Origin: a virus
Lineage: Duplodnaviria > Heunggongvirae > Uroviricota > Caudoviricetes
Reading direction: 5' to 3' (one strand)
IMG/VR virus record: IMGVR_UViG_2511231170_000001
DNA: 23,325 nucleotides
The notes below the pieces were generated by a model. The model saw only the letters and a list, made by a program, of their open reading frames with translations. It did not search any database and had not been told where the DNA came from. Positions 11,085 to 13,620 of the stretch are shown one piece after another (the first letter of the stretch is position 1; every line of letters starts with the position of its first letter). Made by a program: the position numbers and the translations under genes.

Positions 11085-11106
11085 GCCGGAGCAATCCGGC
11101 TTTTTT
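11085..11106 (+). terminator. Rho-independent terminator (GCCGGAGCAATCCGGC + T6)
   Basis: Hairpin then T-run just after the SSB-like gene; near-identical copy at 13525-13547. Confidence 0.6.
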
Positions 11107-11158
11107 ACGGGTCCTCCTGGCGGGGTGGGCCTGAACACGGGGCGGGAGGCGCGGAAAA
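11101..11158 (+). other. Degenerate cos-like element (cosQ-like TTTTTTACGGGTCCTCCTGG then ACGGGGCGGGAGGCGCGGA)
   Basis: Aligns with the cos site at 13541-13596, with mismatches and a 2-nt gap in the cohesive-end segment. Confidence 0.4.
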
Positions 11159-11285
11159 AAGCGCATTTTTGTGATTTTATCGTCATCATCATCATGAGCG
11201 TAATTTATTGTTTTTAATTGTTTTGATGCAAAAAAGATGATGGTTGTGGTTAATTTTCGTTCGACATCTTTGCAGGCAGATAAAA

Positions 11286-11324
11286 AAGCCCGATAAGGTC
11301 AGAGGTGGCTTATCGGGCTTTTGC
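11286..11324 (+). terminator. Rho-independent terminator, possibly bidirectional
   Basis: 12-bp stem AAGCCCGATAAG / CTTATCGGGCTT with an A-run before and TTTTG after. Confidence 0.55.
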
Positions 11325-11399
11325 ATATGAGGCTTTTTGGTGCACTGACACACATGAGCGGGATCATCATTTCATAATTTGCAACACAACTCAATATCA

Positions 11400-11448
11400 T
11401 TGCACAAAATGCAATCCTGATTATAATCAGAGCTGGATGAACATCCAG
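11400..11448 (+). promoter_or_regulatory. Candidate head-operon promoter (-35 TTGCAC 11400-11405, 16-bp spacer, -10 TATAAT 11422-11427) followed by palindrome CTGGATG-aa-CATCCAG
   Basis: Near-consensus sigma70 hexamers about 55 bp upstream of the first head-module gene; Shine-Dalgarno AAGAGGAA at 11467. Confidence 0.45.
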
Positions 11449-11483
11449 TTATAATTTTTTAAGTCAAAGAGGAATTTCTTACT

Positions 11484-11690
11484 ATGGCTGAAGAGAAAAA
11501 AGGCGGTGTTTCGGTGTACATAAGCCCCGACATCGTGAAGGCGCTCAAGGAACGCCACCAGCAGAACGTAAAAGCAGGCATTGCGGCAGGACTTGATCCG
11601 CTGGCGATGGTTGAGCCGTCAACAGGCTGGCAGGTACGCTCCTATTTACGCGCGGCGCTGGGCATAAATCAGACTCATGGGGGTGAATAA
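11484..11690 (+). CDS. Hypothetical small protein, first gene of the head module
   Basis: Strong Shine-Dalgarno; stop overlaps the capsid gene start. Confidence 0.5.
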   Translation: MAEEKKGGVSVYISPDIVKALKERHQQNVKAGIAAGLDPLAMVEPSTGWQVRSYLRAALGINQTHGGE

Positions 11691-12745
11691 TGGCAGTCAA
11701 AGCAATGGCACTTAACACACACCAGCTTTTCGCGTACCTGAATCGCGAGGATATTGCGGAATTTAAATTTAGTCCGCTGTTTACCGCGCTGTTTTTCCCG
11801 AACGTGGCGACATTCAACACACAGGACATCATGTTAGATAACCTGGATATTGAAGAAGTCACTATGTCGGCGTTTTGTTCGCCTATGGTTGGTAGCCAGG
11901 TTCAGCGCGATAAAGGGTACGAAACCAGCATTATTCGCCCTGGCTACATGAAGCCAAAACACGAAATCGATCCATTAAAAACAATAATGCGCATGGCTGG
12001 AGAAGATCCGGCACAGCTTAACGACCCTACCTACCGCCGTATGCGCCTGATTACTGGCAACATGCGCCGCCAGATAAACGCCATTAAAGCGCGCGTGGAA
12101 TGGCTGGCGGTGAATGCGATAACGACCGGAAAAAACATCATTGAGGGCGAAGGCATAGAGCGCTATGAAATCGACTGGAAGATACCGGAAAAAAACATCA
12201 TAGAGCAGGCCGACGGTAAAAAATGGTCAGAGCAGGACAAAGACATACACGACCCAATCTATGACATTGAGCTATACGCAGATCAGGCAGGTTGCCCCGC
12301 AAACGTCATGATTATGGGCGTTGATGTATGGCGCATGTTACGCAGCTTTAAAAAATTCCGTGAACTGTACGATCTCTCCCGTGGTTCAGAATCCGCCGCA
12401 GAGCTGGCATGTAAAAACCTGGGCGAAGTGGTGAGCTTTAAAGGCTATCTTGGTGATCTGGCCCTTATCGTCTATTCCGGCAAATACACTGACAGCGACG
12501 GCACAGAAAAATATTTCCTTGATCCTGATTTGCTGGTCCTGGGCAACACCAACAACAAAGGGCTGGTGGCCTATGGTGCGATTATGGATCAGGAAGCGGT
12601 AAGAACAGGCGCAACGCAAAACATGTACTACCCGAAAAACTGGATTGAGGACGGCGATCCGGCGATTGAGTACGTGCAGACGCACAGCGCACCGCAGCCG
12701 GTTCCGGCAGATATTCGCAAATTTGTTACCGTCAAAATTGCTTAA
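11690..12745 (+). CDS. Major capsid protein, lambda gpE family
   Basis: Blocks aligning with recalled lambda gpE: FKFSPLFTALFF, PGYMKPKHEIDP, EDPAQLNDPTYRRMRLI, ALIVYSGKY, LVLGNTNNKGLVAYGAIMD, YYPKNWIEDGDPAIEY. Confidence 0.85.
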   Translation: MAVKAMALNTHQLFAYLNREDIAEFKFSPLFTALFFPNVATFNTQDIMLDNLDIEEVTMSAFCSPMVGSQVQRDKGYETSIIRPGYMKPKHEIDPLKTIMRMAGEDPAQLNDPTYRRMRLITGNMRRQINAIKARVEWLAVNAITTGKNIIEGEGIERYEIDWKIPEKNIIEQADGKKWSEQDKDIHDPIYDIELYADQAGCPANVMIMGVDVWRMLRSFKKFRELYDLSRGSESAAELACKNLGEVVSFKGYLGDLALIVYSGKYTDSDGTEKYFLDPDLLVLGNTNNKGLVAYGAIMDQEAVRTGATQNMYYPKNWIEDGDPAIEYVQTHSAPQPVPADIRKFVTVKIA

Positions 12746-12756
12746 CGGGGGATTCT

Positions 12757-13092
12757 ATGGACACTCCATACATTGAGTTATTTGCAGGCAGTCAGCAGGT
12801 ATCCACGACGCTGGTACATTTTGCCGCTGATGCTGGCGTTATTCAGGAATTTACCCCGCTGATGCTGGCGGACAATGGCGAGTTTAAGCCGTGGGATGGT
12901 CAGGAATCTGGGAAGGCTGTTTATCTGACCTCGTACCCCGTGGACACGTCAAAGCAGAAATCAGCACAGTGTTACAAGACGGGGATATTTAATATCGCCG
13001 CCGTAAACTGGCCTGAGAGCGCCGACACTGACGCGAAAAAATGCGCCGCCTTTGCGGGTTCTGGCGTATCCGTTCAGCCGCTGGCGCGATAA
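12757..13092 (+). CDS. Head decoration protein, lambda gpD-like
   Basis: TPLMLADNGEFKPWDG and CYKTGIFNIAAVNWPESADTDAKKCAAFAGSGVSV align with recalled gpD TPLMLDTSSRKLVAWDG and [36 protein letters not shown]. Confidence 0.75.
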   Translation: MDTPYIELFAGSQQVSTTLVHFAADAGVIQEFTPLMLADNGEFKPWDGQESGKAVYLTSYPVDTSKQKSAQCYKTGIFNIAAVNWPESADTDAKKCAAFAGSGVSVQPLAR

Positions 13093-13104
13093 GCAGGGGA
13101 AACG

Positions 13105-13518
13105 ATGGCAACGAATGAAAGCATCATGGCGCTACCGCTGGCGAGTAAATTTAAAGCAGAAGCGCGGGCAATGGCTGACAGAGGTTTATCAACCTACGAG
13201 GCCGTATATCAACTCAACAAACTGGAAGAGCAGGACAAGCCGCGCGCTGATGCGATTATGGCGCTTCATGAACATAACGACTATCAGCCGCTGTTACGTG
13301 CAATGGCAAACGTGCCATGTATTAGCGTCGATAATGCTCGTGAAATCCTGAACATGACCATAGAGCAGGAGCGCCCGAAGGTTGCGCCGGAGCTTACCGC
13401 AGCCTTTGAAAACTTTATGGACATGCACAGCCCGAAAGCCGTATCACCCGGCATGGCATACGACGGCAGAAACCAGGGCGATGAAGGCGACGTCGATCGC
13501 ATACTGAAAACCATCTGA
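13105..13518 (+). CDS. Hypothetical protein (137 aa) between the decoration gene and cos
   Basis: ORF with Shine-Dalgarno; no family recognised. Confidence 0.5.
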   Translation: MATNESIMALPLASKFKAEARAMADRGLSTYEAVYQLNKLEEQDKPRADAIMALHEHNDYQPLLRAMANVPCISVDNAREILNMTIEQERPKVAPELTAAFENFMDMHSPKAVSPGMAYDGRNQGDEGDVDRILKTI

Positions 13519-13524
13519 CATAAG

Positions 13525-13547
13525 GCCGGAGAAATCCGGCTTTTTTT
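13525..13547 (+). terminator. Rho-independent terminator (GCCGGAGAAATCCGGC + T7)
   Basis: Hairpin then T-run immediately upstream of cos; paralogous to 11085-11106. Confidence 0.6.
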
Positions 13548-13620
13548 ACGGGTCCTTTCCGGCATATGGACCCGTTACGGGGCGGCGACCTTGCGGATTT
13601 TCGCTATTTATGAGCCTTTT
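13541..13620 (+). other. Lambda-type cos site: cosQ-like TTTACGGGTCCTTTCCGG, cosN GTTACG|GGGCGGCGACCT (predicted 12-nt cohesive end 13580-13591) and the adjacent conserved segment
   Basis: Near-identity to the recalled lambda end-joint ...TTTACGGGTCCTTTCCGGTGATCCGACAGGTTACG / GGGCGGCGACCTCGCGGGTTTTCGCTATTTATGAAAATTTTCCGG. Confidence 0.75.

Follow-up and report, generated by a model that had tools for sequence, protein, structure and literature searches.

A putative Stx/O157-class cos cassette beside a lambda-type cos site in an Escherichia coli phage satellite

Two hairpin-and-cos units on one island

The IMG/VR virus record IMGVR_UViG_2511231170_000001, whose 23,325 nucleotides are called the window here, contains an E. 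coli phage satellite: a phage-inducible chromosomal island (PICI) of ~10.6 kb and of the EcCICFT073 kind. Its genes are, in order, int, alpA, an icd-like gene, a DUF4222 gene, the gene for a RepA helicase, iteron-like repeats, ssb and a small open reading frame (ORF), followed by genes for a gpE-family capsid protein and a gpD-family decoration protein, orf137, a gene for a Nu1-family small-terminase homologue, and orf93. EcCICFT073 is syntenic with this island. Gram-negative PICIs were recognized by int, alpA, icd-like and DUF4222 genes, a primase or a RepA helicase with iterons, ssb, a capsid homologue, cos, a length of ~10 to 15 kb and attachment-site (att) repeats, and the annotation of an identical locus, the repeats and the synteny place the window island among them.

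The literature on Gram-negative PICIs describes two lambda-class cohesive-end sites (cos) per island and an adaptor protein, Rpp, which redirects the terminase of the helper (PMC6092414, PMC6739421). In EcCICFT073, both cos1 and cos2 are functional, and cos1 is recognized by a complex of Rpp and the small terminase, TerS (PMC6092414, PMC6739421). We describe here an island with two units in which a terminator-like hairpin is directly followed by a cos (Table 1). The downstream cos corresponds to cos1, and we call the upstream one site A. A third, inverted cos-like copy, which the initial annotation of this DNA did not mention, is a remnant of cos2. Multiple cos sites on an island of this type are already known (PMC6092414, PMC6739421, Murialdo & Feiss 2022 PMC9026076); what is new is that a satellite of known type carries a further, heterotypic cos.

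Table 1. Positions of repeats, hairpins, cos sites and genes of the island in the window
Feature	Position	Strand	Description
att-like repeat, 69 nt	4495-4563 and 15111-15179		Imperfect, direct; ends in GGTGTAGTTAATGGTGTAGTTAATT; bounds the island
Iteron-like direct repeats	10194-10388		Follow the RepA-helicase gene, ahead of the next ORF
Hairpin 1, GCCGGAGCAATCCGGC	11085-11100	+	T6 run at 11101-11106; terminator-like end of the replication/ssb operon; abuts site A
Site A, putative Stx/O157-prophage-class cos cassette	11107-11271	+	cosQ GGGTCCT 11109-11115; cosN-equivalent GGGCGGGAGG 11140-11149
cosB-like inverted repeats of site A	CATCATC 11184-11193, GATGATG 11236-11242	+	Flank an AT-rich spacer
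Hairpin 2, AAAAAAGCCCGATAAG...CTTATCGGGCTTTTG	11277-11329	+	Second terminator-like stem, right bound of the cassette; -24.6 kcal/mol, z -4.2
Capsid-like module	11484-13518	+	Between the two direct cos sites; orf68, gpE-family capsid, gpD-family decoration, orf137 (annotation)
gpE-family major capsid protein	11690-12745	+	PF03864, 5e-50 (Pfam)
gpD-family decoration protein	12757-13092	+	PF02924, 1e-17 (Pfam)
Hairpin 3, GCCGGAGAAATCCGGC	13525-13540	+	T7 run at 13541-13547; terminator-like end of the capsid module; abuts cos1
cos1, lambda-class cos	13548-13705	+	cosQ GGGTCCT 13550-13556; cosN GGGCGGCGACCT 13580-13591
Nu1-family small-terminase homologue, 180 aa	13725-14267	+	PF07471 Phage_Nu1, 1.2e-23 (Pfam)
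cos2 relic	14269-14305	-	Keeps cosQ-like GGTCCT and 8 nt of cosN (GGGCGGCG)

The initial annotation placed the two units at 11085-11158 and 13525-13596 and described each as a terminator-plus-cos module; both are present in the sequence and both fit that description. The hairpin is truly duplicated, with 21 of 22 nucleotides shared when the T-run is included: hairpins 1 and 3 have the form GCCGGAG(C/A)AATCCGGC plus a T-run, and the only differences between them are a single base in the loop and one T. Their folds have energies of -15.4 kcal/mol (z -6.4) and -14.0 kcal/mol (z -5.0), respectively, and as GC-rich stem-loops directly before a T-run both appear terminator-like under the definition of an intrinsic (rho-independent) terminator. 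Folding detected both hairpins, but a consensus terminator scan left them unlisted.

After the T-run both units read AC-GGGTCCT, and ACGGGGCGG follows 24 to 26 nucleotides further on. cosQ is reportedly the heptamer GGGTCCT, a definition said to come from Wieczorek and Feiss in 2001. The same definition also leans on the published EcCICFT073 sequences (PMC6092414 Fig S5). This heptamer lies ~24 to 26 nucleotides upstream of cosN in both site A and cos1, and the motifs common to the two units are ACGGGTCCT (cosQ) and ACGGGGCGG (the left half of cosN), in the same register. The downstream unit then has TTACG before cosN and the lambda cohesive end GGGCGGCGACCT, of which this is the sole exact match within the window, and it is a genuine lambda-type cos. 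The lambda cohesive end is not found in site A, even when three mismatches are allowed, and the cosN-equivalent there has the context CACG, GGGCGGGAGG, CGCGG.

The upstream unit had been taken for a mismatched copy of the downstream one, a reading staked on identity outside the hairpin being better than chance. Local alignment scores were compared with those of 2000 dinucleotide shuffles. The whole units score 31 against 9.6 +/- 1.7 (z=12.9; reached by 0 of 2000 shuffles), but the score falls to 13 against 8.5 +/- 1.5 past the T-run (z=3.0; 31 of 2000), and past ACGGGTCCT it is at the level of chance (z=0.6; 674 of 2000). This drop indicates that what the units share is the hairpin with its T-run, plus a pair of 9-mers conserved by all lambda-like cos sites. 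The similarity outside the hairpin is therefore barely above chance, and does not support a decayed copy.

Packaging class of site A and the slot after ssb

When positions 10900-11700 were used as a query, matches in O157:H7 and other Shiga toxin-producing E. coli (STEC) genomes were confined to 11103-11271. In the STEC genomes the lysis genes (Rz) stand on one side of the matched sequence, and on the other side is a DUF1441 gene followed by the gene for the large terminase, TerL. This interval is where lambdoid phages have their cos. TerL of the matching phages has the gpA ATPase and nuclease domains, and the DUF1441 gene beside it is annotated as a small terminase in several records.

In the phage collection, site A is 87 to 91% identical over ~170 nucleotides to Stx2-converting phages, VT1-Sakai (AP000400) and CP-1639 (AJ304858), and ~77% identical to the isolated phages mEp460, PhiR40_1, 606R10 and Eeyore; at least 15 prophage sites have 86 to 89% identity. 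The similarity to an O157 Stx1 prophage (locus L003) has z=56.7 against shuffles. With the Stx2d phage Stx2_112808 (LC567830), 156 of 172 nucleotides are identical (91%), and the alignment is free of indels between cosQ and the end of the first cosB-like repeat, CATCATC. The homology covers the full stretch that starts with cosQ and ends with the terS-proximal repeats. Site A has an intact cosQ and phage-like spacing, and carries CATCATC/GATGATG where lambda has R3-I1-R2. The order of T-run, cosQ, 24-nucleotide spacer, G-rich cosN-equivalent and CATCATC/GATGATG is the same in the Stx/O157 prophages VT1-Sakai, Stx2_112808 and CP-1639, and it recurs in their relatives mEp460, PhiR40_1 and Eeyore. 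Taken together, these comparisons assign site A to a second packaging class of lambdoid phages, with a DUF1441 TerS and a gpA-type TerL, and show that it is not derived from cos1. Since hundreds of finished genomes contain the 170-nucleotide match, an assembly artefact is excluded as its source.

The surroundings of site A differ from those of its phage counterparts. The cos of Stx/O157 prophages follows an AT-rich palindrome (ATGATAACCATTATCAT) and lies between lysis genes and the DUF1441 terS/terL genes, whereas site A lies between two GC-rich terminators and has no cognate small-terminase gene next to it; it is followed by hairpin 2, then by the gpE/gpD capsid module. Site A also does not occupy either of the published cos1 and cos2 positions, but is found 2.4 kb upstream, after ssb. 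In most phages examined, including lambda (L152) and the Stx/O157 prophages, an AT-rich palindrome (ATGATAAYCATTATCA) and a T-run precede cos, and in every PICI cos examined (including those of L021, L004 and L131) cosQ directly follows the T-run of a GC-rich hairpin, whose sequence varies by island type. The mEp460-like phages have a different sequence at this position.

The initial annotation judged site A probably not cleavable because of mismatches and a 2-nucleotide gap in the cohesive-end segment. The segment is indeed 2 nucleotides shorter than that of cos1. To place this length within its class, we scanned IMG/VR for the Stx-type cos pattern, classed the 120 resulting loci by their neighbouring genes and measured the G-rich segment between CACG and CGCGG. 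It is 12 nucleotides long in 72 of 73 phages like mEp460, PhiR40_1 and Eeyore. Among prophages with a TerL of the Stx/O157 type (at least 95% identity), 10 of 17 have a segment of 10 nucleotides and 7 of 17 one of 11; for PICIs in which this class is the sole pattern-matched cos, the corresponding counts are 8 and 4 of 12. Since 10 nucleotides is the commonest form in the class, the gap is a class trait rather than evidence of decay, and does not support judging the site uncleavable. The 10-nucleotide GGGCGGGAGG of site A is one base off the commonest form, GGGCGGGCGG, which Stx2_112808 and CP-1639 also carry; cosN-equivalent variants include GGGCGGGCGG, GGGCGGGAGG, GGGCGGGCGGG and GGGCGGGAGGGG. 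The mix of 10 and 11 nucleotides in prophages with the same TerL, and of 10, 11 or 12 among near-identical site-A copies in PICIs (IMG/VR loci L009-L151), is hard to square with a fixed terminase stagger.

Comparison with related islands defines the boundaries of the cassette. EcCICFT073 has an identical hairpin 1, then six bases, then hairpin 2, and an island of an O91 strain (L129) is similar; both retain hairpin 2 and lack site A. Relative to EcCICFT073, site A is an insertion of ~165 bp that fills precisely the space from the T-run of hairpin 1 to the A-run of hairpin 2. Because hairpin 1 occurs in EcCICFT073 with no cos behind it, we regard it as an operon terminator and reject the idea that it is part of a duplicated cos unit, which also speaks against calling site A a relic of module duplication. 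The slot between the hairpins contains an Stx-type cos in the window and an mEp460-type cos (12 nucleotides) in L131, and is empty in L129, L130, L132 and EcCICFT073. The finding of different cos classes in the same slot suggests cassette exchange rather than decay in place. In L065 and L117, a 12-nucleotide variant of site A follows ssb, ahead of a capsid module in which ClpP is fused to the major capsid protein (ClpP-MCP).

PICIs with the ClpP-MCP module (L021, L048, L065, L117) include the closest satellite relatives of site A, with ~85 to 91% identity. Their capsid gene is followed by a GC-rich hairpin whose T-run likewise abuts cosQ, then by an Stx-class cos and orf93, and they are related to helper-embedded PICIs (PMC10111431). 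In most of them the Stx-class cos is the sole pattern-matched cos and is in the cos1 position; L065 and L117 add a copy of site A after ssb.

Locus L131 (NZ_CP044311) has three cos sites, at 4712 and 7249 on the plus strand and at 8191 on the minus strand. The middle one, which is in the cos1 position and is here called site B, is a chimera of an mEp460-type cosQ side and a cos1-type cosB side, with the cosN-equivalent GGGCGGCAGACG; this is evidence of recombination inside cos. The same island has a ClpP-MCP fusion capsid module, yet carries a small-terminase homologue of the window type.

The end of ssb, the hairpin and site A occur together in about 156 of 5,426 complete E. coli genomes; for the end of orf137, the hairpin and cos1 the number is 496 of 5,426, and the whole cos1/capsid module is present in 546 genomes. 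The layout with site A and cos1 on the plus strand and cos2 on the minus strand recurs in many islands. No description of site A was found in PMC6092414, PMC6739421, PMC9026076 or PMC10111431.

Possible roles of the additional cos

On balance, we consider it probable that site A is a complete heterotypic cos cassette of the Stx/O157 class that did not arise from cos1 and can be used by helper phages of that class. The evidence for its identity, which comprises homology, class, cassette boundaries and distribution, is strong, whereas the evidence that it is cleaved and used is circumstantial. The initial annotation had offered a decoy, a duplication relic or a secondary terminase site as explanations, and the last of these comes close to the reading that we prefer.

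If this is correct, the terminase of an Stx/O157-class helper would recognize site A directly, with no need of an adaptor from the island; we propose direct recognition because the cosB-like region of site A is phage-like. Starting at site A, such a helper would then cleave the concatemers of the island and package them, and helpers of the lambda, phi80 and 21 classes would be exploited through cos1 and the Nu1-like protein of the island. Such an island would hold packaging signals for two helper classes, a third site, cos2, having been lost by deletion. An extra cos appears to be costly where a given helper is concerned, as judged from the effect of deleting cos2 (PMC6092414) and from the truncation of cos2 in the window, so the retention of site A in ~156 genomes hints at a benefit, possibly a wider helper range.

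Satellites bearing the cos of their helper are known, such as P4 with the cos of P2 and SaPIbov5 with a phage cos. The use of a helper's cos by these two satellites is also covered in PMC6092414. The mode proposed for site A resembles theirs in that a mimic of the helper packaging site would allow an unmodified helper terminase to package the satellite, but differs in that the mimic would coexist with an adaptor-dependent cos of another class on one element. More tentatively, the terminator-flanked position after ssb might serve in enterobacterial PICIs as a cos slot into which different classes are swapped, with the Stx/O157 cos as an adaptor-free second route next to that of cos1 with Nu1 or Rpp, and the panel of cos sites setting the helper range.

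Several observations weigh against a functional site A. The cosN-equivalent is the most variable part (10, 11 or 12 nucleotides) among 24 copies of site A that are otherwise ~99% identical. This variability looks like relaxed constraint or slippage in the G-run, and weakens any claim of strict functional constraint. One base also separates the cosN-equivalent of site A from the commonest phage form. Site A is dispensable, being present in ~156 genomes compared with ~496 to 546 for the cos1/capsid module, and its copies are so nearly identical that conservation is indistinguishable from recent spread. No other copy of this cos class was detected in Nissle 1917 or in DA61218, the latter of which carries the island of the window, so no helper of that class is resident there. 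A DUF1441 gene was not found in the window by annotation or Pfam. EcCICFT073, the island used as a model in experiments, lacks site A, and the published cos deletions therefore never addressed it. Our search of the literature found no published cohesive ends for the DUF1441/gpA class of Stx/O157 phages; the 10-nucleotide 3' cos reported for a different Stx1 phage (PMC7946995) is a different one and does not apply to the class of site A.

Some of these observations would be expected if site A were a functionless relic, left behind or carried along in the slot after ssb when PICIs and phages exchanged packaging and capsid modules through recombination at cos, and now drifting. The variable cosN-equivalent among near-identical copies would fit such a history, as would the fact that site A is missing in most related islands and in EcCICFT073, an island that transfers well (PMC6092414), the lack of a cognate small terminase beside it, and the existence of mosaic cos sites such as site B of L131, with an mEp460-type left part and a cos1-type right part. 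The unit of ssb, hairpin and site A also precedes a gpE/gpD or a ClpP-MCP capsid module alike. However, the whole cassette is intact, with cosQ and the cosB-like repeats spaced as in phage, islands differ in the cos class with which the slot has been refilled, and surplus cos sites seem to be selected against, given the effect of the cos2 deletion and the natural truncation of cos2 in the window. We regard a relic as rather unlikely, though it is the main alternative.

Site A could instead interfere with Stx/O157 phages by titrating or misdirecting their terminase, through abortive nicking or premature termination, and so reduce phage yield, either in place of packaging the island or in addition to it. 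PICIs are known to block helper packaging by means of Rpp (PMC6739421), and a phage-like cosQ and cosB combined with a cosN-equivalent of variable length that is one base off the commonest form might suit such a device. Yet one copy of a site per replicating island makes a weak sink, there is no precedent for it in PMC6092414, PMC6739421, PMC9026076 or PMC10111431, and PICIs in which this class is the sole pattern-matched cos presumably need it for transfer; we think this role improbable. Least credible of all is a decayed, uncleavable duplicate of cos1, perhaps a decoy for lambda-type terminase. The near-identical hairpins and the two 9-mers in the same register gave that idea its appeal, and deletion of both cos1 and cos2 abolished lambda- and phi80-mediated transfer of EcCICFT073 (PMC6092414); as EcCICFT073 has no site A, this result does not bear directly on it. 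We rejected a degenerate cos1 as a candidate on the near-chance similarity of the two sites outside the hairpin taken together with the match to Stx2_112808, because decay of cos1 cannot yield 91% identity over 172 nucleotides to a phage cos of another class, and EcCICFT073 has the hairpin without any cos.

If site A is a usable Stx/O157-class cos, some islands would also be mobilized, free of any adaptor, by Stx/O157-type lambdoid phages; the island of the probiotic strain Nissle 1917 and many islands of extraintestinal pathogenic E. coli (ExPEC) would be among those that can be mobilized in this way. The spread of satellites would then be linked to phages that carry Shiga toxin, and helper range would have a simple determinant. 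The natural variants of 10, 11 and 12 nucleotides would also be of use for probing how terminases of the gpA type measure their staggered cut. Even if site A is merely a relic, it documents cos as a breakpoint in the exchange of modules between satellites and phages.

cos1, the cos2 remnant and other features of the window

For comparison with cos1, the real ends of lambda were fetched and joined. cos1 is near-identical to lambda from cosQ through cosN to about +35 and diverges beyond, where its cosB is island-specific, with the inverted repeats GTTGGTG (13624-13630) and CACCAAC (13682-13688). Its sequence agrees with the published cos.1 of EcCICFT073 (PMC6092414 Fig S5), and it lies at the published cos1 position, in direct orientation and upstream of the rpp/terS gene. 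cos1 of the window thus resembles that of EcCICFT073: cosQ and cosN are lambda-like, cosB is specific to the island, and the rpp/terS slot lies just downstream. The two islands differ in that the window has site A as a third site, which is of another cos class, has a phage-like cosB and lies after ssb and before the capsid module. Within cos1, the segment ACGGGTCC (cosQ) recurs inverted as GGACCCGT 12 nucleotides downstream, forming a 28-nucleotide near-palindrome between cosQ and cosN (13548-13575) that has no equivalent there in lambda.

The remnant of cos2, GGTCCTTCCTGGAATTATGGCCCGTTACGGGGCGGCG on the minus strand, equals the left part of the published cos.2 (PMC6092414 Fig S5) and is at the published cos2 position, inverted and downstream of the gene in the small-terminase slot, as in EcCICFT073. 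It retains only GGTCCT of the cosQ heptamer and ends 8 nucleotides into cosN, 1 base past the stop codon of the Nu1-like gene (junction 14268/14269). Compared with the Nissle island, ~182 bp are missing, namely cosB2 and 4 nucleotides of cosN. cos2 is intact in the Nissle, O91, O145 and CFT073 islands (loci including L002, L129 and L132). Deletion of cos2 from EcCICFT073 led to higher lambda-mediated transfer (PMC6092414), and the truncation in the window fits this gain.

The gene next to cos1 also distinguishes the window from EcCICFT073. Its product is a Nu1-family homologue, and it occupies the slot in which EcCICFT073 carries rppA (L135, 8974-9408, 144 aa). CFT073 RppA matches the RppC structure (PDB 6HLK) at 5e-31, whereas a PDB search with the 180-aa protein of the window gave no match, and BLASTP produced no alignment between this protein and CFT073 RppA. 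We therefore rejected its identification as Rpp. From these sequence comparisons, two apparently non-homologous solutions, RppA and a Nu1-family protein, fill the same island position. The cosB repeats adjoining the Nu1-like gene also differ from those of EcCICFT073.

Across positions 10600-14300, the island has 100% identity to several E. coli isolates from humans and ~95% to Nissle 1917. The capsid and decoration homologues are full-length. In a contig set with one genome per species, no match was found for the capsid protein or for the junction of hairpin and cosQ, and an Rfam search of the whole window matched no RNA family. Metagenome contigs in IMG/VR were inspected for termini at a cos, as a clue to which site is cut in nature; none ended at a cohesive-end position, and there were no terminal repeats. 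The iteron-like repeats, which include two exact copies of AAAAAGTGGGTAGTAAAAGTGGGGAG 168 bp apart and 19-nucleotide units every ~84 bp, are probably the replication origin of the island.

The island splits the transposase gene of an IS110-family insertion sequence (ISEc45), whose halves flank it (3504-4563 and 15111-15486). EcCIDi14 is another PICI that resides in an IS110 gene (PMC10111431). Positions 1-3400 and 15500-23325, which are unrelated to the cos sites, form a mosaic in which remnants of IS66, IS630 and IS110 accompany a CP4-44-like block that contains the cbtA/yeeU toxin-antitoxin genes, radC, and antirestriction, DUF932 and DUF905 genes.

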